Shown here piece after piece: positions 3,191 to 56,986 of a stretch of DNA of 64,000 nucleotides (position 1 is its first letter; each line of letters starts with the position of its first letter). Location of the stretch: contig JACZWU010000003.1 of NCBI GenBank assembly GCA_022571985.1, positions 120,860 through 184,859 of the forward strand. The letters run 5' to 3'. The stretch comes from Candidatus Zixiibacteriota bacterium. Its GTDB lineage: Bacteria > Zixibacteria > MSB-5A5 > GN15 > FEB-12. The notes beneath the pieces are model-generated. The model did no database searches, was not told where the DNA came from, and was given only the letters and a program-made list of their open reading frames with translations. Made by a program: the position numbers and the translations under genes.

Positions 3191-3703
3191 TTGGCAGTAC
3201 ACATAAGACTTCGTCGGATGGGTAAAAAGAAACAACCTTTTTACCGGATTGTGGCCGCAGACCACCGCCGTGCCCGCGACGGCCGCTTTATTGAAATTTT
3301 GGGAACTTACAATCCGATGACCGTACCGGCCAAGGTGACGTTGTTGGAAGATAAAGTCACCAAATGGCTTAACGAAGGTGCCGAGCCATCGGATACGGTC
3401 AGCACTCTGTTCACCCAGATTGGCTTTACAGAAAAGTATCTGAAACTCAAAAAGGGTGAAGATGTTTCTGCAATTGAAATCAGGACAGAGATAACAGAGC
3501 GTCGCAAAAAAACTAAAGGGATGAAAAAGGCTGTCGCCGCCGAAGCAGAGGCCAAAAAAGCCAAAGCAGAAGAAGCGCCTGCTAAAGTTGCTACGACAGA
3601 ATCAGCTCCCGCAGAAGAAGCTGCCCACGAAGAAAAGGCTGCGCCCGCCGAAGAAACAGCTCCCGCAGTAGAAGCTGATAGCAAAAAGGAAGACAAAGAA
3701 TAG
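3191..3703 (+). CDS. rpsP: 30S ribosomal protein S16 with long Ala/Glu-rich C-terminal tail
   Basis: [41 protein letters not shown] start with GGAGG RBS; canonical operon position. Confidence 0.97.
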
Positions 3704-32444: not shown

Positions 32445-33569
32445 TTACGAACCGGGATTACCATCCGTAACATCCTGAGCCTCGATCGAAAATATATTGA
32501 GGTCAGGATAAAATGCGGCCAGAGCGAACCAATAGGCAATAAATGAAGTTGTGGCTGTTAACTGCTGGCCCTCTCTCGGTCCGCTGACGGCAACTCCAAA
32601 AATATCCCACTTGTTACCTTCTGTATCCTCAAGTATTATCGGCAGGGAGTTTTGAACTGCCTTAAATGTCAGCACAGAATCATCAGACAATTTGCGACTG
32701 AAGACGACAGCCAGGTTTTTGCTGCTGCTTCCGGCGGCAACCACCGGCAAACCGTTAAAATCATGAACGAAAATATTGAGGCTGTCGGCAAAGTCTGAAA
32801 TTCGATATGCTAAAGCGTTTCCATCGACAATTAAGCTCAACACACGTTCTTTGCCCGGAAGTCTGGAGTCGCTGTTTGATACCGGAAACAGCAGCCGAAA
32901 TTGATTTGTCCGGTAATCACCATAAGGATATCTGCCATAGGGACGTGAAAATCCGGTGTTGGTAGAGACGACCAATGTATTGGGATACAATTCTTTCCAG
33001 GTTTTCCAGGTCGTTTCGACAATATTAAACAATTGCGGTGTTTGCCCAATCAGCTCACCGTTGACACACTGCAATTTCATCTGTGACCAGTTGCTTTGAG
33101 TTAATCTGTCATACGGGATAAGATTAGTGTTGTACAATAATCCGGAGACGCCAAAGGTTGTTTCGGTTCCATTTATTATTCTGTTCCAGGCCACGGCGCT
33201 TCCCGTAAGCGGACAATAGGTAAGGGCAAAAGCATTTGAAGCGATTTTGTCGTTTATAATTTCATGCCAATCTAAGATAGGATGCGGATAAGCCCTGACG
33301 ACATTGCCAATTTTAATACCGACAACAAGATCATTATCTGATAGATATGAATTAGCAGGATCATCTGCCGCTATGAATACAGGCTTATCAACTGAGGGAA
33401 TGCCGTCCCGCCCGGGGCCGCCGTCAAAGACTTCGTTCACCGGAATCAACCAGGCCGAAGGATCTGAACTGGCACCTCCCAGTGATGAACTATCATCGTC
33501 ACTGCAGCCAGAAATTAAAAACAGAACTATGAAAACAAAAGCTGTTCCGAAAATGTATTGCTTTTTCAT
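32445..33569 (-). CDS. DUF3179 family lipoprotein (Cys form)
   Basis: Lipobox ISGC; GGPGRDGIPS...F, RAYP..IL.WHEI.ND, TYCPLTGS, FGVSGLLYN.NL..YDR.T.S.WSQ, YWFA..AFYP. Confidence 0.9.
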   Translation of the reverse strand: MKKQYIFGTAFVFIVLFLISGCSDDDSSSLGGASSDPSAWLIPVNEVFDGGPGRDGIPSVDKPVFIAADDPANSYLSDNDLVVGIKIGNVVRAYPHPILDWHEIINDKIASNAFALTYCPLTGSAVAWNRIINGTETTFGVSGLLYNTNLIPYDRLTQSNWSQMKLQCVNGELIGQTPQLFNIVETTWKTWKELYPNTLVVSTNTGFSRPYGRYPYGDYRTNQFRLLFPVSNSDSRLPGKERVLSLIVDGNALAYRISDFADSLNIFVHDFNGLPVVAAGSSSKNLAVVFSRKLSDDSVLTFKAVQNSLPIILEDTEGNKWDIFGVAVSGPREGQQLTATTSFIAYWFALAAFYPDLNIFSIEAQDVTDGNPGS

Positions 33570-33580
33570 CAGTTGCTCCT

Positions 33581-34561
33581 TTAGAATGGAAATTTTATGT
33601 CTTTATCCGGCGGTGAGATCGTATAGAATAGTGAAAATGAAATCGTGTAGCTGGTTGTAAGTTGGGTACCGTTCAATTTCCTGTACAGAGGCAGTTCGCC
33701 TTCGCCCCGAACTCCAAACTTTTCATAAATATTCAAGTTGAGTCCGGGCACAAAATTCAGCCATTTGCCGCCGCTATTGTTAACATCATTATTATCAAAG
33801 GCATCTGCCTTAGTTGATCTATATCGAAGTCCCAAATTGTAATTTATGGTGGTCATATGATTGAAATTAACAGCCAGTGATGTTACCAGTTCATTGCCAA
33901 ATCTGTAGCCAAGCGGACTTTGGCCGAACCTGTCATTAGTTCCGTTAAGCCGGTACGAAAAAGTTGAATATACAGTTATGGGAAATTTTGTAAACAATCC
34001 CTGCTGGGCATGTCCCCACAATACCATATCCCAGGCCCCGGTACCAAGCTGCATATCAGCAGCTAACAAAATGTTATTACTTCTTATATCCGACCGACCT
34101 ATCGGTACTTTAATACCGCCGCCAATGGATATTTGTCTGCGGTTTTGTATTGACTGAGGTAAAACGGCGTATTTTAGAAGGAGCAGACCATCTCCAATTC
34201 CGCGGGTGCGCAAAATTTCACTAATTGAAAAGTTGGATGTTGTCTGGCGCTGCTGCTCCAGCAGAGTAAAAATTGCTGAGACTGAAAAATGTTCAGTCAG
34301 ACCATAATTGATTTCAAAAAGTCCTGTTCGCACCCGGCGACTGCGAACATCATCATCTAATTTTTCGCTGCCGCTATATACATTTGTAATAGAACTGAAT
34401 TTATAAGTCAGCCCGAAATGCCAGACTCCGGTAGGTGTTGAAGGAATTTCAAGGGAGCTTAGAAGCGGCGCTCCGCCGCAGCTGCAAGCCTGAGCCCCGA
34501 CCGCCGAAGGCAGGTTAAGTAAAACTACGATTGTCAAAACCAGGGTAGAAAAAATTTTCAT
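33581..34561 (-). CDS. Outer-membrane beta-barrel transporter-family protein with N-terminal CSC motif
   Basis: Signal peptide then AQACSCGG; GIGD, K.P.G, QLGTGAWD, NSGG.W, LPLY..LNG.QL. Confidence 0.8.
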   Translation of the reverse strand: MKIFSTLVLTIVVLLNLPSAVGAQACSCGGAPLLSSLEIPSTPTGVWHFGLTYKFSSITNVYSGSEKLDDDVRSRRVRTGLFEINYGLTEHFSVSAIFTLLEQQRQTTSNFSISEILRTRGIGDGLLLLKYAVLPQSIQNRRQISIGGGIKVPIGRSDIRSNNILLAADMQLGTGAWDMVLWGHAQQGLFTKFPITVYSTFSYRLNGTNDRFGQSPLGYRFGNELVTSLAVNFNHMTTINYNLGLRYRSTKADAFDNNDVNNSGGKWLNFVPGLNLNIYEKFGVRGEGELPLYRKLNGTQLTTSYTISFSLFYTISPPDKDIKFPF

Positions 34562-38557: not shown

Positions 38558-40003
38558 TCATTTTCGCTTCGGTTTATAATAATGAGTCGACTGTCCTTCA
38601 AACATCTCAGCCGCCTCCATAACTGTTTCTGAAAGAGTCGGATGGGGATGAATGGTCAGCTCTAAGTCTGAAGCAAGAGCTGCCATTTCAATCGCCAGAA
38701 CGCCCTCTGTGATAAGCTCGCCGGCGCGTGGGCCGGCAATGCCGACACCCAGAATACGGCCGGTTTTGGCATCAACTATATGTTTGGTGAGACCATCGGA
38801 GCGGTCAAGGGTTACCGCCCGCCCCGAAGCTCTCCAGGGGAATTTTAAAATTTTAACATCCCGCCCCGATGCTTTGGCCTCTGTTTCGGTCAGTCCGCAC
38901 CAGGCAATTTCAGGATCTGTAAAAACTACGGCCGGGATTGCTTTCGGTTCAAAGACCGTTTTTCTGCCTGCGATTACTTCCACCGCTACTTTGCCTTCAT
39001 GCGAAGCCTTATGCGCCAGCATCGGCTCTCCGGCAACGTCGCCAATAGCAAAAACCGAGCTTTCAGCTGTGCGGCGCTGTAAGTCTATTTTTATAAAACC
39101 AAACTTATCTGTTTCTGCCTTTATGTTTTCAAGACCAATATTTTTTGAATTCGGCTGGCGGCCGATTGATATCAAAACTTTACCAAACAGCTGTTCTTTC
39201 TTTTCTGTTTGGCTACCATCGTCACTCTCGAAACTTACCTTGATACCGCTTTTTTCTTCTTTAAGACCGACAACTTTTGTTTTAAGCAAAATGCTGTCAA
39301 ATATGTTTTCAATTCTTTTGAATAGCTCTGCTGCCAAATCACGGTCGGCTCCGGGTAAAATTCCATCGGTCATTTCCACAACCGTAACTTTGGAGCCAAG
39401 TGCGGCATAAACTGTCCCCATTTCCAGGCCAATATAGCCTCCGCCAATTACCAGTAGACTTTTGGGAACATTATCCAAGTTAAGAGCCGTGGTTGAGTCC
39501 AGTACATTTTTGCTGTCGATTGAAATGCCGGGAATTTGTGATGGCGAAGAACCGGTGGCTATGATGGCGTTTTCAAACGACAGCTTATAAGATTCGTTGT
39601 CGTTAATTTTTATTTTGAGCGTGCCGGAATTTTCAAAAGTTGCCAGTCCTCGTAGATGCTCGACTTTTCTAAGTTTGGCCAGTTGTCCTACTCCGCCGGT
39701 TAATTTGCTGACGACATCGTCTTTCCAGCTTCGAAGTTTACTCAGATCTATTTTAGGTTTGCCAAAATCTATCCCGAAGTTTTTAGCGTGCTCTGCTTCG
39801 CGAATAATTTCCGCCGCGTGTAAAAGTGCCTTTGATGGAATGCAGCCGTGATAGAGACAGACTCCGCCGGGGTTCAGCTCGGGGTCAACAATTGTAACTT
39901 TCATGCCCAAATCAGCAGCATGAAAAGCTGCCACATAGCCTCCCGGTCCGCCCCCGATGACTACTAACTGTGTCGATTTATCTTTGGCGTTTACAACTGT
40001 CAT
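38558..40003 (-). CDS. lpdA: Dihydrolipoyl dehydrogenase (E3)
   Basis: GGGPGGY, GGVCLYHGCIPSK, GGGYIGLE, HPHPTLSE. Confidence 0.97.
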   Translation of the reverse strand: MTVVNAKDKSTQLVVIGGGPGGYVAAFHAADLGMKVTIVDPELNPGGVCLYHGCIPSKALLHAAEIIREAEHAKNFGIDFGKPKIDLSKLRSWKDDVVSKLTGGVGQLAKLRKVEHLRGLATFENSGTLKIKINDNESYKLSFENAIIATGSSPSQIPGISIDSKNVLDSTTALNLDNVPKSLLVIGGGYIGLEMGTVYAALGSKVTVVEMTDGILPGADRDLAAELFKRIENIFDSILLKTKVVGLKEEKSGIKVSFESDDGSQTEKKEQLFGKVLISIGRQPNSKNIGLENIKAETDKFGFIKIDLQRRTAESSVFAIGDVAGEPMLAHKASHEGKVAVEVIAGRKTVFEPKAIPAVVFTDPEIAWCGLTETEAKASGRDVKILKFPWRASGRAVTLDRSDGLTKHIVDAKTGRILGVGIAGPRAGELITEGVLAIEMAALASDLELTIHPHPTLSETVMEAAEMFEGQSTHYYKPKRK

Positions 40004-48872: not shown

Positions 48873-49646
48873 TTAACCGACTCGTTTTGAACGGACTCCA
48901 AAATCCACGTTGTCTTTGACCCATTCAAAAAACCGGTCCTGCTCTTCAAAGCGTTTGTTCGGCAGTAAAATCTTGGAGTCTTTCCAGGAGACAAGAACTT
49001 CCGCATCCTGAGTCCAGATTTTAACGCGCGAACGTTTTACTTTGGTCTGCCAGTTTCTGCCCACTACTGCGTCAGTATACAAAAGACGCAAGGTGACCGA
49101 TCTGGAAAGTTTCTCAAGCGGCCTTAAGACTATGCTTGAAAAATCGGTCTTGCCGTTGCGTTTGATATCTGGAATGCCGTCGCTGAGCATTACCACCGAT
49201 ATCGGCCTGAGAGCCAGGTTTTTGTTTTTGACAGTCAGTGCAACTTGCTCAAAGAAAGCGTTGTAATCGGTAAACGGATTAGGGTTTTCCTTGGGGAAAA
49301 TTTTCCGCAACTCCGTTTCGATTTCTTTGACAGATTTATTCTGAAACGACTGGATGGGGAAAAACGTTTTTGGTTCGTTAGTTTTGGCGCCGCCAATAGA
49401 GCTGACGAACAAAACATTAGGAACTTCCATACCGCCCAGTCCGTGCAAATGACCATAGATATAGTGCGCTAAGAATTCGATAGAATCATCGAAATACTTA
49501 CCATTCATAAACGACCCGCTGATATCTACGCCCACGAACATACACAAACGCGGATTCGGTTTGCCAGTCGTCATACTGCAGCCGCTCAGGACAATTGCGG
49601 CCAGCACGATTGTCACTAACAGAGATTTATATCTGGACATTGTCAT
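48873..49646 (-). CDS. VWA-like lipoprotein
   Basis: Lipobox LSGC; MIDAS-like VDISGS, TD, VVMLSDG. Confidence 0.75.
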   Translation of the reverse strand: MTMSRYKSLLVTIVLAAIVLSGCSMTTGKPNPRLCMFVGVDISGSFMNGKYFDDSIEFLAHYIYGHLHGLGGMEVPNVLFVSSIGGAKTNEPKTFFPIQSFQNKSVKEIETELRKIFPKENPNPFTDYNAFFEQVALTVKNKNLALRPISVVMLSDGIPDIKRNGKTDFSSIVLRPLEKLSRSVTLRLLYTDAVVGRNWQTKVKRSRVKIWTQDAEVLVSWKDSKILLPNKRFEEQDRFFEWVKDNVDFGVRSKRVG

Positions 49647-50937
49647 GCTCCCGTTGCTGTTCTGTCTGAGGAACTGCCGGCGACTGTACTGATACTGGCG
49701 ACGCAGTTGTGACAGAAGGTTTAACTGCGACCGGCGGCGGCTCGCTTTGCTGGATATTTTTCATCAAAGTCCTGGTGTCTGTTACAGCCGACATCGACTT
49801 AAACGGCAACTCAAAAAGATGTTTCGAATTGAGCAGCAGCGTACAAAAGTTAAGCGCCGCGGCTACTATCTGCAGCGGCGGCAGCATCAAGTCGGCCATG
49901 ACTTCTTCGCCTTTGGCGCGCATCCAGTCCATCTCATACTTGATGCGGTCAACAAATTCCGGGGATATACTGACCAGTCTGCTGGTATTGCTGCCATTCT
50001 GTCTGAAGACCACCACACCTTTACCCTGTATCAGATACAAAATGGTGGGCGTGCCATGAGCAGCAAACAGGAACCACGTCAAACTTCTGATTCCAAACCA
50101 GACAAAGCAGGAAATTGCCAGCGTCCCGAAGATACCAAGTTCAAAACTTTCTGAATACTGTGCGAACCACGGCACCAGCGAATCGACAAATTCACGATAC
50201 AAGAACAGAACTTCGACAAACAACACTACAGCTTCAATAGCGCCTATCCCAATTATGGAATGGAAGTTCTTTTGCTTAACAGAATCAATTAAGTTTGACA
50301 GCACCGCGTAACTTCCCAGCACTATAAAGAACAGGAAAGTAAACAAAGGAACTCTGACAACATTAAGCTGCAGCTGTTCTCCGGTAATATTTGAGAAGAC
50401 GTCAAGCACCAGCGGCGTCATGACATAAGTAAAAATAGTCGCTTCAACAAGGCACCAGAAAATGGTCATAAAGACAGCCAGCCAGGGCACAGGTGAACTC
50501 AGTATATTCTGGCTCATGCTCTTAAACATACGAAACGGAGTAAAGAGTATTTCTTGAACCAGTGACCAGAGAGCCATCGCGGTAATTTTGGCAAACTCTA
50601 AAACAGCCACCACAAAAGTGAAAGCGAACTTAATAATGCCGCCCCAGAACATTACGATGGACTTTCCGAGATCCCACCAGGTTATAATGAGGCTGGTCAG
50701 AAACTCCCGGCGGTTCTGCCGAATGACAACTGTCAGGAGACAGGCAATACTGGCCCAGCAGCCAAGAATTATGGCCATGACCGGCAGCAAGAGGAAAATT
50801 CTTTTGGCGGATTGAATCCAAAATTGGTCAGTTGCCGCCCAGGCAAAGTAAACAAAACTCTCCTGAAAAAAGAGCGGAAAAAACAAAACCGAAAAGACAA
50901 TTTTCAGGATGACACTAGATTCGCTATTCATAATCAA
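49627..50937 (-). CDS. Polytopic membrane protein of unknown function
   Basis: About 8-10 hydrophobic helices; AGGAGG RBS; overlaps the start of the VWA gene. Confidence 0.8.
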   Translation of the reverse strand: MIMNSESSVILKIVFSVLFFPLFFQESFVYFAWAATDQFWIQSAKRIFLLLPVMAIILGCWASIACLLTVVIRQNRREFLTSLIITWWDLGKSIVMFWGGIIKFAFTFVVAVLEFAKITAMALWSLVQEILFTPFRMFKSMSQNILSSPVPWLAVFMTIFWCLVEATIFTYVMTPLVLDVFSNITGEQLQLNVVRVPLFTFLFFIVLGSYAVLSNLIDSVKQKNFHSIIGIGAIEAVVLFVEVLFLYREFVDSLVPWFAQYSESFELGIFGTLAISCFVWFGIRSLTWFLFAAHGTPTILYLIQGKGVVVFRQNGSNTSRLVSISPEFVDRIKYEMDWMRAKGEEVMADLMLPPLQIVAAALNFCTLLLNSKHLFELPFKSMSAVTDTRTLMKNIQQSEPPPVAVKPSVTTASPVSVQSPAVPQTEQQREHDNVQI

Positions 50938-51167
50938 TGCCTCCTTTCTATGGTAAATTGAGGGTATAAGACTATGAGCGATAATCCTTTTATCGGCCTC
51001 TTTCTACCAATATTGAAAACTATTTTCGATTATTATTGCACATGGCAAACCGTAACGGGGCAATGTTTTGAAGGCTAATTGTTCAATCTTTGAGCAGCAC
51101 CGAAGAGACGCCTGAGTAGTAGCTGCTTATCTAATATAAATGACCATGAATATCTGGAAACAATAGT

Positions 51168-52463
51168 CTATTGCTTTTTCATATACTCAGCTATTTTTTC
51201 TGCCAGCATGTCACCGTCAAGCCGAGGGGAGATCTCTTCAGAAATTCCGATCTGATTCATAAAAAAGTCCGGATAAGACGGAATATCACCCCAACTGTCA
51301 TTTTTGTCATAGAGAAAATAAATATCCCAGGCTACGTTTGCTATATCTATAACTTCCTGCCACTCAGCGCCGGTTCGTTTATACCTGTCCCAATAATATG
51401 ATACGCGCGGGTCATCAAATTCTGTGGAGCGCAAATAGGCTGAGTACTTATCATCTGACTGCAAAATATCAATCCAAATTACATATATAACTAAATCATC
51501 ACCAAGATTAGCGCTAATTGCATCCTGAACGACGGAGAACCCCCGTCTGCAACCCGGTCACGTTGGCGATAGTAATGTTATTAGTCTGACTTTGCCGCTG
51601 TCTTTTTCAAAAGCTTCCTGCAACTGCCCAAAATCGAGCAGGTCACGGGTGCGTAGCGTGTCAGCACCTAAATCGGCATAGGTTTTTCCTACCGACTCTG
51701 GTGGTGCATAATTACTGATCTTTAGTTGGGAGATTTTATTAGTTTCATCAAACTTCATATAAAATCCCATTGCCTGACCCTCAAAATAAATCGGTAAGAG
51801 AACACTCGAAGGGTCATTAACTTCTAACTTGCCAGTTTCAATCAATTCTCCCCATCTGCCGTGCATTTGTGCTATGAATGAATGATAGTCTTCAACAGTC
51901 TTGTCATCGTCATCGTCATCGTCTTTCTTCATTAAGGATAATATTAGTTCAGCGTTAGTATCTCTGAATGCCTCGGCAAATTGATCGGCATAAGGCTGGT
52001 AGCGTTCCTTAATTTTGCGCTTTTCATGATCGCTCAAGTCCAGGCCCGAAGGATCCGCTTTATGGGAGTACCAGCTTAAACGCTCGATTTTGTTATCACT
52101 ATTGATACGAATGTGAAGGTCTAGCTTTTCGCTTTCTGTCTCGACGAAAACAAGCGCCCTGCTGCCATCGGGACTAATATCGGCGCTGTGAGATATTATT
52201 GAGTCCTGCTCATCCACACCGACATCCAGTATATTTTCGATTTTCTCAAGCGTAAATTTTCCTTTGAGCTTTTCGCTGAAATTTTCCCGATAGGCAACGG
52301 CATCTTTTTTATTATAACTCGTCACCAGTTTGTCGATTATCAGCTGCAGGCTTGAAGCTTCATTCTGAGCTGTCGAAGCTCCCGGAAACATGGCAAACAT
52401 CACGGCACATAACGCGACTGCCGCAGCCAATCTCGTAATTGTGGTTTTAATATTTTGGCTCAT
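51168..52463 (-). CDS. Exported thioredoxin-fold selenoprotein (TGA at 51560-51558 read as Sec, motif T-U-P-G-C) with two N-terminal repeat domains, 431 aa
   Basis: ORFs 51558-52463 and 51168-51464 are in frame; readthrough gives VRLITLLSPT-U-PGCRRGFSVVQ...VIYVIWIDIL; SECIS-like hairpin 10 nt after TGA; signal peptide and AGGAGG RBS. Confidence 0.87.
51531..51547 (-). promoter_or_regulatory. Bacterial SECIS-like hairpin
   Basis: GACGGGG-GTT-CTCCGTC, 10 nt downstream of the TGA. Confidence 0.72.
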
Positions 52464-52487
52464 TCATTTGCCTCCTGTAGTTCATCA

Positions 52488-53474
52488 TTAGTTCCTAGTG
52501 CCCGGAACAGTAAATATATCAGGCTTTTTGTTCTGTTCGTCATGTCCAAAAATGCTAATGCCAGTTGACAGTCCGAAACGAAGATTCCATTTTTCGGTCA
52601 ACTGTACGTCTGTGACGTTAATATAAACTGGCAATTGAAATTCTGTCCAAAGTCGGATTGCTGATTCGCCGTCTCCAACTAGAGTTTTTGAACCTCCTGC
52701 GATAGCATAGATCCAGCTGCCGCCGCTGTTTGGAAACAGGCTGCCGCTGATTTCGTCCTGAGATCTGCTGACAGCCAGCATACCAAGATTAGCTGTGTAG
52801 CTTCTCCCCAGCGGAGCGTAATTAGTTTCCAGTACATAACTATAGTGATTTCCTGTTCTTTGATTGTTCGATGAAGATGCCACTACCTGGCGAGCGAAGA
52901 ATTTGCCGGTCAGAATCCAGCCGGGAGAAATCCCAGCAGCAATTATCAGGCTGGCTATAGGGTCTACGGTGCCACTTGCAAAATTACGTTCATCAGTCAT
53001 GACGTTTGTCACACCGCCGCCTACCGGAAAAGTAGCGCCTAGTGCTACCTGTCCGTTTACTGGCTTTGAGAACAACCTCGTGCCAAAGAACAGTTGTGCC
53101 GTGACCGATAGATCGCCGAAATTCGTCTGGGTTCGGTCAAGCGATTTGTTAACACTTCGATTGATAATCAGCGGCACCGAAGCAGACAGACTAAGATGGT
53201 TTGAAACTCCGAATGACATTGAGGCAGAGATTATATGCGACTCTGTCTTCTGCTTAAGTGTATCAACCAAGGTTACTGTCCCGCTGCGCAATCTGTCCCT
53301 GCGAGTGAAGGCATAATCCAGACCAAGGCGAAGATCGCCCTGGTGGATAATTGTACTAACTGATCTGCCGACCGGCAGATTGGGTGTGCTTCAGAGAGCT
53401 CATTGAGCTTCAGCAGATTCAACCAGCCAGACTGAAGTTAGTAGTAATCCGGCAATAGCCCAATTTCTAATCAT
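52488..53474 (-). CDS. Outer-membrane beta-barrel transporter-family protein with two in-frame TGA codons (U-A-L-U at the mature N-terminus), 328 aa
   Basis: ATG at 53474 with AGAGGT RBS gives MIRNWAIAGLLLTSVWLVESAEAQ-TGA-AL-TGA-STPNLP..., in frame with ORF 52488-53291; homologous to 33581-34561, which has AQACSC at this position; SECIS-like hairpin follows. Confidence 0.8.
53363..53380 (-). promoter_or_regulatory. Bacterial SECIS-like hairpin
   Basis: ATCTGCC-GGTC-GGCAGAT, perfect 7 bp stem 10 nt after the second TGA (53393-53391). Confidence 0.75.
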
Positions 53475-53503
53475 CTGTCTACCTCTATCGTTTAGTTGTA
53501 ACA

Positions 53504-53827
53504 TCAATGACTTTCTTGCCGGGCTGCTTGTATCGCCCTGCTTAGAAGTTCTTTTGGTGGAATACCCGACTGACTTTCAGCTGTGCGATAAATTCGGCAG
53601 CGCATCGAATACTGCGTAGTAGCATCTTCTTCTATTTCTAAGTCTTTTCCGTTTACTCTGACTGAAGGTGAACCGAGGAATCTTTTCGCTACCGCATCAT
53701 CATTGTCCACAACTGTAACGACTTCAATTTTAACATCGTCGCCAAGTTTAGACATAGTTTCGCGAATCAACTTTTCGGTCGGTTCGCTATTTGGGCAGCC
53801 ATCAAATACGAGCAATTCTATTTTCAT
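53504..53827 (-). CDS. Small thioredoxin-like protein (DUF2703-like)
   Basis: IELL.FDGCPN, FLGSPSVRVNG.D, CRIY, GIP; ATGA overlap with the upstream gene. Confidence 0.8.
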   Translation of the reverse strand: MKIELLVFDGCPNSEPTEKLIRETMSKLGDDVKIEVVTVVDNDDAVAKRFLGSPSVRVNGKDLEIEEDATTQYSMRCRIYRTAESQSGIPPKELLSRAIQAARQESH

Positions 53828-54426
53828 CTGTTCCCTCCATTTTCTTCAACGAGTTCTGCAAGGTATCCAACCGATGCCAAAGCTTCGTTAATAACATTTA
53901 AGTCGAGCTGGTCTTGATTATACCAGATGTAAGCTCTGCTTTCGATAAAACTAGATTTGACACTATCAACCAATCCGGTAGCGGTAATGGCACCGTTGAT
54001 CGCTATTTCACAGCCACCGCAAGTCATACCCTCTACTTTGAAAACGGCTAACTGAGCCGATGACGCACTTACCATGACCCGGTTGCTGTCTGTACCGAGG
54101 ATATAAGGATAAACCGACCAGACGAAAAAGCCCGATACAACCAAAGTTGAAATAGTTAACATTATTTTTGTAAAGCTGCTGCCGGCCATTTTGCAGCCGG
54201 TAGTCTTGCATTTTTTCTTTTCACGAAAATACAGCCAATAAGAAAATAGAACTCCCGTTGCCGCCAGCGGCATTATAAACCACTTCACAGATCCAAGCGT
54301 AGTTGAAAAACCTGCCACACCCGCTGTTCCTATTCCCAAGAGTGACAAACCAAGCAGGGCCAGCGGAAGTACGCAGCACGACGAGGCTGCTATCGCTGAC
54401 AGAATTGAAACTTTTTTAGCGTCCAT
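53824..54426 (-). CDS. MerT-like transporter fused to a C-terminal HMA (MerP-like) domain
   Basis: ASSCC..PL in TM1, loop CKTTGC, three TM helices, then VEGMTCGGC. Confidence 0.85.
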   Translation of the reverse strand: MDAKKVSILSAIAASSCCVLPLALLGLSLLGIGTAGVAGFSTTLGSVKWFIMPLAATGVLFSYWLYFREKKKCKTTGCKMAGSSFTKIMLTISTLVVSGFFVWSVYPYILGTDSNRVMVSASSAQLAVFKVEGMTCGGCEIAINGAITATGLVDSVKSSFIESRAYIWYNQDQLDLNVINEALASVGYLAELVEENGGNR

Positions 54427-54437
54427 ATTTTTGCTCC

Positions 54438-54857
54438 TCAGGCTTTGATTAGTTCATCAAGAATCGGACAGTCTTTTAATGTTTTTAAATTCACGCATTG
54501 TGAGACCAAATTGGATAAAGTCCGTTCCATCGATTTTAAGTTTCTGATCTGAGATTGTATTTTATCCAAACGGTTCGCGGCAAACTCTCTTACTTCATCA
54601 CAGCCGCGGACTTTGCCGTCTGCCATGCTCAATAGTACTTTGATATCGTTAAGGCTGAAACCTATCTCTTTAGCACGCCTGATAAAACGCAGCCTGAAAA
54701 CTGCATCTTCATTATATAGGCGGTAGTTAGATTCAGTTCTTTCGGGCTCAGACATCAAGCCCAGTCGTTCATAATAGCGAATAGTCTGAGCGTCTGTTGC
54801 CGATTTTTGAGCAAGAACACCAATAATCATTCTGTCTTCCTTCATTAAATTATTCAT
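54438..54857 (-). CDS. MerR family heavy-metal-responsive regulator
   Basis: IG.LA......QTIRYYERLGL..P.RT.SNYRLY, FIRRAK..GFSL..I; three Cys (GCDEV, QC........CPIL) as in MerR/CadR/PbrR; start could be 54857, 54845 or 54830. Confidence 0.92.
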   Translation of the reverse strand: MNNLMKEDRMIIGVLAQKSATDAQTIRYYERLGLMSEPERTESNYRLYNEDAVFRLRFIRRAKEIGFSLNDIKVLLSMADGKVRGCDEVREFAANRLDKIQSQIRNLKSMERTLSNLVSQCVNLKTLKDCPILDELIKA

Positions 54858-54863
54858 ATATAT

Positions 54864-54894
54864 ATACTACCTTATAGTTTGCTATAAGGTTCAG
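54864..54894 (-). promoter_or_regulatory. MerR-type promoter/operator
   Basis: Perfect dyad ACCTTATAG-N4-CTATAAGGT (54869-54890) inside CTGAAC-19 bp-TAGTAT. Confidence 0.8.
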
Positions 54895-54963
54895 GTAAAT
54901 TTTTATTTTTTTTGAATAATTATTATCGCTAGCTGGCGGCAGGCATAAAGCGTTGTTATATAA

Positions 54964-56160
54964 CTACATATGGCGAGTAAGCTGGAATTCGAAAAAATCG
55001 TCATCTCTCAAATCGTAGAGTAATTCTCTGCTCGTCTGATTAAAAAAGCCCCTGAATTCTATATCCAATGACCACCAGTCACTTAGACGTGTGCCCATTT
55101 CAACAAAGGCCAGAACCGAGCCAATTTTGGTATCGATAATCAATCCTCCCAGTATATCAGTGCCGCTGACATTATTAAAGACCAGCCGCCCGCCTACAAG
55201 AAGGTCATGTTCAAAGGGAGTAAAGCTGCTTCCGCGGTCATCATACATATATTCAATGAGTAGCCCCAGATCATATTGGGAGCCAGACACCCCCACCAGA
55301 GTGTATTCGAAGCCGCCGGTAAAGGCATGTTTTCTGTCATCAAACGAGGCATCAATTGACAGAGCCTCAAGTTTCCAGATCCAACCTCCGCTTACATAGA
55401 GCAGATCCAGCCCTAGTCGTTTTGTTTGATAATAATAGGGCGCCAGTTCAATTTGGTTGCCCGGCTTAAATAGCGGCTGAAAAAGTGGCTGCCTTTCTGT
55501 TCCGGAAAAAAAAGACAGTCCGATATCGTATTGACCTATTGTATGATACCAGCGCACAGCCCAGTCCTGATGCCACTCTCTGGCATCGGATTCATATAAT
55601 GCTTTATCAGTATTGATTGGCAGCGACGGTCTCAGACGGCCATCAACTCCGGCGAATGTTCTCTCCCTGAAATAAGGCAGCCAGAAAAAATCAAACGTCC
55701 CGAAGTTACTAAGCCAGGTAGTTTGCAGCATCGGCTGGCCAAGTTTGTCTTCGCCGTCAATATTTTCGATCCAGTCGGTTTGATTTATTATATCTACCAG
55801 ATGAAGTCCTTCGGTCTGCCCCCAAAATACTTTGCGAAAGCCGATATTAAAATCCCAGTCAGAAAATCTCTTCTGCCAGAACAATTCACGCCAGTCAAAG
55901 TGGCTGCGTTTGCTGTCGTTTGCGTCCAGACGGACGAAAGGTACTATTACCAGCTGTACATTTCTATCTGTCCAGTCATGATAGTATTCCAGCTCGGCGG
56001 AAATAGATCCAAACAGCTTGTCATCTACATTATATGCTGAACTGCCGGGAAACAATCTTGTCTCGACAGAGAAATCATAAGTTATCTCTTCGCTGGCGAC
56101 TTGATCGGCTGGTATAATTGAAGCGAAAAATAAAAACGTAAAGAAAGAAACAGATCTCAT
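54964..56160 (-). CDS. Outer-membrane beta-barrel protein associated with MMPL/LolA-like module
   Basis: Signal peptide; R..FD.RE.FW, KVFWG.TE..HLVDIINQTD, EDKLGQPM; amphipathic strands. Confidence 0.8.
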   Translation of the reverse strand: MRSVSFFTFLFFASIIPADQVASEEITYDFSVETRLFPGSSAYNVDDKLFGSISAELEYYHDWTDRNVQLVIVPFVRLDANDSKRSHFDWRELFWQKRFSDWDFNIGFRKVFWGQTEGLHLVDIINQTDWIENIDGEDKLGQPMLQTTWLSNFGTFDFFWLPYFRERTFAGVDGRLRPSLPINTDKALYESDAREWHQDWAVRWYHTIGQYDIGLSFFSGTERQPLFQPLFKPGNQIELAPYYYQTKRLGLDLLYVSGGWIWKLEALSIDASFDDRKHAFTGGFEYTLVGVSGSQYDLGLLIEYMYDDRGSSFTPFEHDLLVGGRLVFNNVSGTDILGGLIIDTKIGSVLAFVEMGTRLSDWWSLDIEFRGFFNQTSRELLYDLRDDDFFEFQLTRHM

Positions 56161-56164
56161 ATTA

Positions 56165-56986
56165 TTATCGTACCGACTTCAGTACATTCTGCTTAAAGTC
56201 TTTCTCACTCAAGCCCGTTTTAAATTTGTATTGACTAAACAGAAGAGTAGTCGATTTGCCGGTCTGATGGTTAATCATTTCCATTCTGTTTGCACGCCAG
56301 AATTTGTCAAGATATTGTTTGTAGTCATGTAATGTCAGCGTTTTTAAAAGCGATCCTTTGCGGTCATAGTATTCGAGTTTCTCTGGAATGTACAATACTT
56401 TATCAATCCAGACAATTTGTTTAGTGTAGCCGGAGTTTTTATCTGTCGGAATCCGTTCCACCACAAAACAGGCCGCGCCGTTTAAAGTGTCATCCTTGAG
56501 ATATCTGTAAGTATATTTTTCAACTTCCTGTGAAGACAAATCTTCATAGGCAAACTCGCTGCCCATAAACGGACCCGATTTATTATTGGACGCTATCCGC
56601 TTGACCCGCTTCAGCGCCGGCAGATAAATCCACTGGTCATCCTGTCCTTTAACATGAGTGTAGGACAAGAAAGCTGTGCCTTTAATATCGCGCGGAGTGT
56701 CAAAAATTATCAGGCTTTTGTCACCATCGCCGGTGACTTCCAGAGTCCGCATCCTGATAATACGCTTACTCTCCTGGCCATGGCGATTGCGCAGTATCAT
56801 TTTCATAGAGGCGGTGTTGTCTATAAATCCGGAATCCCGCCGGTCAATTTCCCGGGCGATACGAAGCCCTTCTTCCTCCGGTGTGGCATTAGCATGAGTG
56901 GCAAGCGAGGCCGTCGATAGAAATATAAGCAGCATTAATTGCTTCATGCGATTGACAAAAAATAATCTTTCTGAATCCTTTATCAT
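56165..56986 (-). CDS. Outer membrane lipoprotein-sorting (LolA-like) protein
   Basis: DDQWIYLPALKRVKRI, FMGSEFAYEDL, YYDRKG.LLKT. Confidence 0.9.
   Translation of the reverse strand: MIKDSERLFFVNRMKQLMLLIFLSTASLATHANATPEEEGLRIAREIDRRDSGFIDNTASMKMILRNRHGQESKRIIRMRTLEVTGDGDKSLIIFDTPRDIKGTAFLSYTHVKGQDDQWIYLPALKRVKRIASNNKSGPFMGSEFAYEDLSSQEVEKYTYRYLKDDTLNGAACFVVERIPTDKNSGYTKQIVWIDKVLYIPEKLEYYDRKGSLLKTLTLHDYKQYLDKFWRANRMEMINHQTGKSTTLLFSQYKFKTGLSEKDFKQNVLKSVR

Follow-up and report, generated by a model that had tools for sequence, protein, structure and literature searches.

Introduction

Classical mer operons (merR-merT-merP-merA in Tn501 and Tn21; merR-merTP-merA in two Zixibacteria genomes, G154 and G155) unite a three-Cys MerR sensor and a 19-nt dyad promoter with MerT, which bears a Cys-Cys pair in its first helix and a further Cys pair in a basic loop, and with a MerP-like HMA domain. 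These elements recur in a five-gene operon on the minus strand of a 64,000-nt stretch of DNA from Candidatus Zixiibacteriota bacterium (hereafter, the window), within positions 51168-54899. Unlike in the classical systems, the host genome is devoid of merA, merR itself heads the transcription unit, and the operon further encodes a thioredoxin-like protein of the DF family, an outer-membrane barrel, and a periplasmic thioredoxin-fold protein with a selenocysteine (Sec)/Cys pair, here called gene 5. We know of no classical mer operon with any of these three components. To our knowledge, mercury biology also has no accepted outer-membrane step, and most models center on MerA. Figure 1 of PMC8261052 draws only diffusion across the outer layer. 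On balance, and as a composite of several lines of evidence, the operon appears to be a merA-less, MerR-controlled system that handles Hg(II) or related thiophilic metals with the aid of selenium.

Selenium in such systems has precedents. MerT-like selenoproteins and the SAO system of Haft have been described from bioinformatics in the accessible portion of bioRxiv 10.1101/2022.07.06.499078, and NCBIfam holds a UxxU metal-binding (HMA) selenoprotein (NF041115) and a MerT/CopZ fusion-like selenoprotein (NF045683). As in these proteins, Sec takes the place of Cys in putative metal-ligand pairs of the window operon, including a UxxU pair, and the products are truncated in databases. In contrast to them, the MerT and HMA domains of the window are Cys forms, and Sec is found instead in the outer-membrane barrel and the TlpA-like gene 5. 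Sec within an outer-membrane barrel protein is known as well: the 2026 selenoproteome review, as far as its available text goes, includes the GSU2204 family of MtrB/PioB-type barrels (NF041027) and a TonB-dependent receptor with an FCYXU motif (NF049945; PMC13188914). These belong to other barrel families of other sizes, their models are not matched by the window barrel, and, by the motifs of the review table, neither has two Sec residues at the mature N-terminus.

Against NCBIfam release 20, the barrel and gene 5 gave no match at E<=0.1 beyond two at chance level. Likewise, a COG4313/PF13557 selenoprotein, a gene-5-like family, and an outer-membrane mer component are all missing from NCBIfam release 20, Pfam, the review table (PMC13188914), and the main texts of the mostly open-access literature searched. 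The barrel and gene 5 are very probably genuine examples of two selenoprotein families not yet curated. A preliminary description of the window had called this architecture unfamiliar, a statement that holds for the outer-membrane component and for these two selenoproteins, whereas selenoproteins in mercury-type transport were already on record.

The sequencing runs that contain the window are labeled marine sediment metagenome. According to the parts available of one survey, merT and merR are the most transcribed mer genes in deep-sea sediment, and merT and merR without merA are abundant in marine sediments (PMC12484752).

A Mercury-Type Core Without merA

The five genes run in one direction in the order merR, MerT-HMA, DF, barrel, gene 5 (Table 1), with intergenic gaps of 11, -4, 29, and 24 nt; the third is counted from the barrel ATG at 53474 and becomes -4 nt if the barrel begins at TTG 53507. 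The tight coupling, coordinates, and gaps of the preliminary description were reproduced, and the gene identities that it had proposed were upheld by Pfam and NCBIfam scans, solved relatives, and Foldseek. It had also placed a MerR-type promoter ahead of merR. A 19-nt spacer was found there, together with a perfect 9-4-9 dyad, ACCTTATAG-CAAA-CTATAAGGT, at 54890-54869, which overlaps the promoter elements (read by eye, with coordinates verified). Relatives have a dyad at the equivalent place, and its arms covary between clades (ACCTTATAG/CTATAAGGT, CCTGTA/TACAGG, CTATAC/GTATAG). A sigma-70 scan could not list this promoter because it permits only spacers of 16-18 nt. A terminator scan found no intrinsic terminator 3' of gene 5.

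Table 1. Features of the operon, listed in the direction of transcription (window coordinates).
Feature	Position	Strand	Description
MerR-type promoter/operator	54869..54899	-	TTTACC 54899-54894, 19-nt spacer, TAAGGT 54874-54869
merR-like metal sensor	54438..54857	-	139 aa in longest open reading frame; Pfam MerR, MerR_1, MerR-DNA-bind
MerT with C-terminal HMA (MerP-like) fusion	53824..54426	-	200 aa; NF033556, PF00403, PF02411 matches
Cytoplasmic thioredoxin-like DF family protein, Cys form	53504..53827	-	107 aa; DGCPN ... RCR; NF049942
Outer-membrane 12-strand barrel, predicted selenoprotein	52488..53507	-	339 aa from TTG 53507; likely start ATG 53474 behind GAGG
Probable Sec codons U36 and U39 of the barrel	TGA 53402-53400, TGA 53393-53391	-	invariant TGA columns in 15/15 aligned sequences
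SECIS-like hairpin, barrel	53363..53380	-	AUCUGCC-GGUC-GGCAGAU, begins 10 nt past second UGA
Gene 5, exported, predicted selenoprotein	51168..52463	-	431 aa; signal peptide, two NTF2/DUF3887-like domains, thioredoxin domain with Sec302-x-x-Cys
Probable Sec codon U302 of gene 5	51558..51560	-	TGA at equivalent codon in 9/9 aligned Sec-type relatives
SECIS-like hairpin, gene 5	51531..51547	-	GACGGG-GGUUC-UCCGUC, begins 13 nt past UGA

Translation of merR more likely begins at ATG 54830, behind GAAGGAAG, giving a protein of 130 aa, than at the start of the longest reading frame. Its closest solved relatives include 4ua1 (E 7e-32), which we take to be the Bacillus MerR-Hg structure, and 5crl, annotated 'Mercuric resistance operon regulatory protein'. 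All three Cys residues align, and they are presumably the Hg(II) ligands. The three aligned Cys of MerR and the long-spacer dyad promoter together are a trait that the operon shares with mer operons. The Cys motifs of the MerT-HMA protein are CC (first hydrophobic membrane helix), CKTTGC (a basic loop), and GMTCGGC (HMA domain). It scores 82.8 bits with the MerTP_fusion model NF033556 (cut-off 180), 19.8 bits with the MerT model PF02411 (cut-off 32.9), and 32.4 bits with the HMA model PF00403, above its cut-off. The Sec-type models NF045683 (34.9 bits, cut-off 375) and NF041115 (39.6 bits, cut-off 95) are matched only weakly, and both domains are Cys forms here.

The third core protein matches NF049942, 'DF family (seleno)protein', with 105.1 bits (cut-off 70), PF13192 with 26.3 bits, and PF10865 (DUF2703) with 21.7 bits, just below the cut-off. 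DF family members occur in 30 of 285 Zixibacteria genomes (in what follows, G labels denote these genomes, G000 being the host genome, and L labels denote loci extracted from them), with a TGA in only one of 32 places. In the accessible part of the 2026 review, 'hypothetical protein DF' is listed as a recently found selenoprotein family (PMC13188914).

True MerA is present in only 2 of the 285 genomes (G154, 474 bits; G155, 563 bits), in both cases after merR and merTP. The window MerR and MerTP are 64% and 66% identical to the merA-adjacent pair of G155 and 42% and 59% identical to that of G154. These identities are the strongest argument that the sensor and importer of the window are of the Hg(II) kind, which the preliminary description had named beside Cd, Cu, or similar metals, and they are likewise the chief support for the proposal that merA is here replaced by DF and two selenoproteins. 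In G155 (L100, C10:261000-280000), the order is merR-merTP-lipoprotein-merA, and MerA includes an NmerA domain as well as SCCAG at the C-terminus; ~5.7 kb off, behind an ABC-transporter cluster, there is a full-length gene-5 homologue of the Sec type. In G154 (L101, C17:68000-84000), the order is merR-merTP-merA-AhpD-like.

The preliminary description had noted no merA in the window, and the rest of the host genome, which is 97.6% complete (2.93 Mb, 17 contigs), has none either: the best match to TIGR02053 reaches 360 bits against a cut-off of 454. Four MerA-like flavoproteins were considered as MerA and dropped, all being below the cut-off and the best lacking the C-terminal Cys pair. One of these four paralogues is a 481-aa flavoprotein disulfide reductase in the window (38597-39970, minus strand; MerA model 291 bits). 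The host genome also gave no match to merB (PF03243), a weak negative, since control genomes gave none either, and no match to hgcA (NF040863). A role in feeding mercury methylation was dropped because hgcA is absent from the genome.

The same anatomy could serve another cognate metal, such as Cd(II), Pb(II), Zn(II), Cu(I), Ag(I), or Au(I), in which case the operon would be a general soft-metal defense. The best NCBIfam model of the sensor, TIGR02051 MerR, scores 130 bits, below its equivalog cut-off of 150.85, and CueR (117 bits), ZntR (110 bits), and CadR-PbrR (105 bits) are close. In addition, the second and fourth best solved relatives are 5gpe, 'Transcriptional regulator, MerR-family' (presumably PbrR-like), and 6jgf, CadR; NF041115/CopZ models and HMA domains also match the HMA part, and a CsoR-like metal repressor occurs in the related cluster of G025. 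Nevertheless, another metal is unlikely, given that MerR ranks first among the solved relatives as well as among the NCBIfam models, that the sensor/transporter pair is so similar to one directly upstream of a true merA and, to a lesser degree, to the second such pair, and that the alternative transporter of a sister clade is MerC, another mercury-type importer.

Probable Selenocysteine Decoding of the Last Two Genes

The barrel gene contains two in-frame TGA codons and gene 5 contains one. Based on the conservation of codons and hairpins, the three are very probably genuine Sec codons. A six-frame search of the 285 genomes recovered 14 barrel places at E<1e-40, and both TGAs are present in all 13 that reach the N-terminus; the fourteenth is interrupted by a contig end, and an N-terminal piece with 2 TGAs lies on another contig. 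A third TGA in the G025 barrel is a genuine stop. Sixteen genomes, with identities down to 26%, retain the two TGAs of the barrel, and the gene-5 TGA is kept across 12 genomes, in each case with coding conservation on either side. Around the barrel TGAs, 15 sequences, again down to 26% identity, share the motif (A/G)(Q/G)-U-(A/G)-L-U-x-S-(P/R)-x-(L/S)-(P/S)-V-G just past the signal peptide.

The hairpins resembling a selenocysteine insertion sequence (SECIS), which the preliminary description had pointed out, show compensatory changes. Among 14 distinct barrel sequences, 92.9% of cells are paired, compared with 24-56% when the partner is slid; two-sided changes affect three of seven pairs (7 cells), and covariation amounts to 0.275, compared with 0.173 in shuffled alignments (reached in 0/500). 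The gene-5 hairpin has 94.4% of cells paired, two-sided changes in two of six pairs (4 cells), and a covariation of 0.315 versus 0.196 in shuffles (reached in 2/500). The Sec machinery of the host genome scores above curated cut-offs throughout (selA 506, selB 342, selD 390, and tRNA-Sec 71 bits), and selA is above cut-off in 258/285 Zixibacteria genomes, among them every barrel-bearing genome. The host selD (G000:C10:144517-145437, L010) is itself a Sec-type SelD with one in-frame TGA.

Were the TGAs ordinary stops, the region would consist of fragments, pseudogenes, or separate short genes. Standard gene callers indeed give fragments only, as stated in the preliminary description; database homologues are cut at the TGAs without exception, those of the barrel (26/26; 204-280 aa, covering 57-82%) beginning past the TGAs and those of gene 5 (22/22; 267-301 aa) stopping at the TGA. 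Rfam, searched over 51000-55100 at E<=10, returned no SECIS family and only two chance matches, and the gene-5 homologue of G089 is split over two frames. Yet this reading is extremely unlikely. It is opposed by the recurrence of the TGAs at equivalent codons of 16 (barrel) and 12 (gene 5) genomes, flanked on both sides by conserved coding sequence, by the covarying hairpins, by the complete Sec machinery, and by the proteins that it would leave behind: any TGA-free start of the barrel omits the signal peptide and the first strand (residues 58-76 of the model), and gene 5 without read-through would break off within its thioredoxin fold, at the active site. A barrel beginning past the TGAs was dropped on the same grounds.

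Whether Cys stands at the Sec positions in relatives has a mixed answer. TGAs are retained among the closer relatives of both proteins. Relatives of the barrel have an N-terminal Cys pair at the same place, with a spacing of CC, CxC, or Cx4C. In gene 5, the Sec position equals the CxxC site of the fold, and the sole TGA-free sequence relatives, three distant proteins, have Ser.

The Barrel as a Putative Outer-Membrane Channel

The AlphaFold2 model of the barrel, built with 25 sequences, has ~12 strands (mean pLDDT 74, pTM 0.70). In Foldseek, 4rl8 ranks first, a structure of the COG4313 channel Pput2725 (E 1e-10, target TM-score 0.71-0.73), and FapF comes next. The barrel protein matches no Pfam or NCBIfam family and does not reach the PF13557 cut-off; the cut-off of this family (Phenol_MetA_deg) is passed by the more distant relatives L075 (24.7 bits) and L076 (41.2 bits) and by three of eight Cys-type representatives. 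Judged from the model, the protein is a divergent COG4313/PF13557 12-strand outer-membrane channel. The two share a ~300-residue, 12-strand barrel and a segment ahead of strand 1, luminal in solved 4rl8. In contrast to its relatives, the window barrel matches no Pfam family, and its pre-strand segment of ~22 nearly invariant residues begins with Sec-x-x-Sec (mature N-terminus Q-U-A-L-U-S-T-P-N-L-P-V-G-R-S). According to the accessible part of PMC4493636, where the word cysteine does not occur, the lumen of the solved COG4313 channel holds, on the periplasmic side, the ~14 residues that precede strand 1. By analogy, the Sec segment of the window barrel may likewise be located in the lumen; this placement is an analogy because the segment is not confidently modeled.

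Gene 5, a Predicted Exported Thioredoxin-Fold Selenoprotein

Gene 5 comprises NTF2/DUF3887-like domains at ~38-133 and ~145-251 and a TlpA/ResA-like thioredoxin domain at ~262-431 with the motif LLSPT-U-P-G-C. The DUF3887 model (PF13026) scores 28.7 bits, below its cut-off of 31.8, and no Pfam or NCBIfam thioredoxin model matches the C-terminal domain. In the AlphaFold2 model (pLDDT 78), this domain resembles DsbF, ResA, TlpA-like thioredoxins, and ScoI in Foldseek (target TM-score ~0.5-0.7), and U302 occupies the CxxC position, at the start of a helix that follows a strand. The predicted structure of gene 5 thus ends in a TlpA/ResA-like extracytoplasmic thioredoxin fold. Export is indicated by a signal peptide visible in the sequence and by lipobox-like LIGC or IIGC in the relatives L083 and L085.

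An exported thioredoxin fold with a UxxC pair at the start of helix 1 is shared with TlpA, ResA, DsbE, DsbF, and the known UxxC thioredoxin-fold selenoproteins covered by the available text of the 2026 review (PMC13188914). Gene 5 differs from TlpA/ResA-type thioredoxins in its motif LLSPT-U-P-G/A-C-RR, in its two NTF2/DUF3887-like N-terminal domains, and in its linkage to DF and mer genes. Of the Sec-type relatives, which occur in 12 genomes, five belong to mer operons (four within the genus and that of G090, where no barrel intervenes), that of G012 directly follows DF, and that of G155 is located ~5.7 kb from the mer operon; the short flanks of the remaining five contain no mer gene.

The gene-5 homologue of G089:C7 (L031/L081) consists of two pieces in different frames (1-172 and 174-431), a frameshift or assembly error. 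The Asp run KKDDDDDDDK of gene 5 (51900-51925, residues ~179-187) varies in length between strains: contigs of two runs are without 6 nt at 51903, and the run is shorter by two Asp in L079.

Linkage of the Barrel to Mercury-Type Genes

The order merR-merTP-DF-barrel-gene 5 is found at the genus level (L030-L032, L079, L080). In a clade at ~50% identity, the order is merR-DF-MerC (PF03203, 46.7 bits)-HMA or thioredoxin-like-barrel (L033-L035, L068, L109). The barrel of G025, at 33% identity, lies amid genes for a CcdA-like protein, MerR, a thioredoxin-like protein, a glutaredoxin selenoprotein, a CsoR-like repressor, MerTP, and an AhpD-like protein. In total, 10 of 16 genomes show the barrel together with merR and one of merT and merC, in keeping with the tie between a Sec barrel and merR/merT that the preliminary description had proposed. 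In the G025 locus (L073, G025:C17), a 77-aa glutaredoxin selenoprotein (oriented coordinates 3197-3430; PF00462, 'QPGUIFC') directly follows the Sec barrel and is itself followed by the CsoR-like repressor (PF02583) and the MerTP fusion.

The two selenoproteins might nonetheless carry no metal. The barrel would then be a channel for a hydrophobic molecule or a small sulfur or selenium compound, with a redox-active N-terminal Sec pair, gene 5 would serve it in the periplasm as a reductase or oxidoreductase, and only regulation or neighborhood would be shared with mer genes. The fold relatives of the barrel point this way, as do the TlpA/ResA-like reductase fold of gene 5, the CcdA-like electron conduit in the G025 cluster, the barrel loci elsewhere (6/16), for example beside sodium:alanine-type symporter or DinB-like genes, and the Cys-type barrel paralogues, which pair with exported Cys-motif proteins (DUF3179, DUF1573-like) and not with mer genes. 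We consider this improbable, because merR and one or the other of two mercury-type importers, merT and merC, repeatedly accompany the barrel over a range of 33-89% identity, because UxxU and CxxC pairs beside HMA and MerT domains are classic soft-metal ligands, and because a UxxU metal-binding selenoprotein family already exists in NCBIfam.

A Possible Route for the Metal

Under the favored reading, Hg(II) or thiophilic-metal handling without MerA, the operon products are distributed over the cell envelope, with one protein and one soft-ligand pair for each layer: Sec-x-x-Sec in the outer membrane, Sec-x-x-Cys and Cys-x-x-Cys in the periplasm, Cys-Cys in the inner membrane, and two invariant Cys residues of DF in the cytoplasm. 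The arrangement is best explained as a three-gene core common in the phylum (MerR, MerT-HMA, DF) that has here gained two very probably genuine selenoproteins. From these sites we infer a relay, and its direction, from the outer-membrane Sec pair to a periplasmic Sec/HMA step and on to MerT. Hg(II) in sulfidic sediment would be held by sulfide and thiols, and the diselenolate on the N-terminal segment of the barrel would capture the metal at or in the channel. Ligand exchange would then move it to the Sec/Cys site of gene 5, to the Cys pair of the HMA domain, or to both, from where it could pass via the Cys-Cys pair of MerT to the cytoplasmic Cys pair of DF. Gene 5 may instead, or additionally, be a reductase that keeps the barrel diselenol reduced. 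The final fate of the metal could be sequestration, or reduction by something other than MerA.

The system might alternatively scavenge a needed trace metal made scarce by sulfide instead of defending against a toxic one, an option raised in the preliminary description. The marine sediment label of the runs is compatible with scavenging, import without merA would not be followed by volatilization, and selenolates could out-compete sulfide on general chemical grounds. However, MerR-type activators act when metal is abundant, a logic of detoxification, and uptake systems are normally repressed by metal. The orthologous regulator/transporter pair, moreover, serves a merA operon. Scavenging therefore fits the MerR-type activator poorly, and we regard it as quite improbable.

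Several observations weigh against the favored reading. Import of Hg(II) without MerA looks harmful. On general chemical grounds, a transfer from the diselenolate to dithiol sites would run uphill. The MerR, MerT, and MerTP models all score below their curated cut-offs, and the three-Cys pattern of the sensor is presumably shared by 5gpe and by CadR (6jgf). The Sec segment of the barrel has a pLDDT of 26-34, residues 22-52 being below 50, and the Cys pairs of barrel relatives (CC, CxC, Cx4C) are spaced differently from UxxU. At the active site, the three distant TGA-free relatives of gene 5 read SPTSADS or SPTSASS (Ser-x-x-Ser), which is neither Cys nor Sec. The barrel is not beside merR in six of the 16 genomes (G152, G154, G155, G250, G121, G043). 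The core of merR, transporter, and DF occurs without barrel or gene 5 in L102, L104, L107, and L108, and G090 has gene 5 after merR-merTP-DF with no barrel; both selenoproteins are therefore accessories. DF is also part of an arsenic-type cluster (L106) and may therefore serve metal and metalloid systems more broadly, as a redox or thiol partner. Finally, COG4313 channels have been tied to the uptake of hydrophobic substrates and not to metals, as far as the accessible part of PMC4493636 goes.

The arsenic-like cluster L106 (G266:C1:122500-130900) encodes an ArsR-like regulator, DF, an ArsC-like phosphatase-type reductase, a Cys-rich methyltransferase-like protein, and an ACR3-like carrier, all named from their sequences.

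Cysteine-Pair Relatives of the Barrel

A profile search with the barrel against 1.84 billion cluster representatives matched 2,494 proteins at E<=1e-3, 707 at E<=1e-10, and 24 at E<=1e-30. N-truncation affects nearly all of the best matches, marking them as Sec forms. Among the best 150 representatives of the clade, 94 are N-terminally complete, and 90 of these have a Cys pair in the first 75 residues, spaced as CC (53), CxC (16), Cx4C (17), or otherwise (4); a few of these pairs may fall inside signal peptides. Typical motifs directly past the signal peptide are AQGCCSxGxP, AQTCSCAGAPLL, and ASCGSxxCPID. Owing to these N-terminal Cys pairs across the clade, the UALU pair can be viewed as the selenium version of a general feature, with a differing spacing.

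A bolder interpretation, which we put forward tentatively and hold to be possible rather than probable, extends beyond the window. With the Sec-Ala-Leu-Sec barrel, a mercury-type system would for the first time have a dedicated outer-membrane component, and this barrel would be the selenium form of a large unrecognized COG4313-like class, represented by the matches at E<=1e-3. The N-terminal Cys/Sec pair would act as a metal 'hook' in the channel, handing thiophilic metals to periplasmic Cys/Sec proteins (gene 5 and HMA here; DUF3179 and DUF1573-like proteins in paralogous clusters), and Zixibacteria would replace MerA chemistry by selenium-based capture. The conserved pair in thousands of uncharacterized PF13557-like barrels could then explain their cargo. 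[quoted passage not shown]

Other barrels of the clade accompany different partners. In the window, a Cys-type paralogue of 326 aa (33581-34561, minus strand; mature N-terminus 'QACSCGGAP'; no Pfam match) lies directly upstream of a DUF3179 protein (32445-33569, minus strand; PF11376, 296 bits). The pairing recurs in L062, L065, and L066, where CSC-type barrels adjoin DUF3179-like genes. DUF3179 is a selenoprotein family in other organisms, according to the available part of the 2026 review (PMC13188914). Eight Zixibacteria loci (L052, L053, L054, L057, L058, L059, L061, L063) have a CC-type barrel beginning 'NCCAP', with a small lipoprotein of ~130 aa just upstream in all except L063. Further upstream, L052, L053, L054, L058, L059, and L063 (where it is cut) encode an exported protein of ~260 aa that is absent in L057 and L061 and that, from its motif, is probably DUF1573-like. 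In L053, an ABC transporter ATPase gene follows. A Cx4C-type barrel in L056 (G027:C3), 'ASCGAAVCPLN', adjoins a small exported Cys-rich protein, 'CQNKKCCCDHSG'.

Neighboring Genes and Related Sequencing Runs

Contigs of four runs with marine sediment or metagenome labels are short pieces from related strains, and three of the runs cover all 30 bins. The three TGA codons are untouched by the 40 run-contig differences listed; there are 486 further rows, and nothing is concluded from this comparison. No RNA run is listed among those that contain the window, and the tag 'RNA?' on one run is a guess that carries no weight as to expression. Upstream of the promoter, the window encodes a 398-aa exported protein without a Pfam match (54964-56160, minus strand) and a LolA_like protein (56165-56986, minus strand; PF17131, 231 bits). 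Downstream of the operon is the gene for a 436-aa multi-pass membrane protein (49627-50937, minus strand), likewise without a Pfam match.

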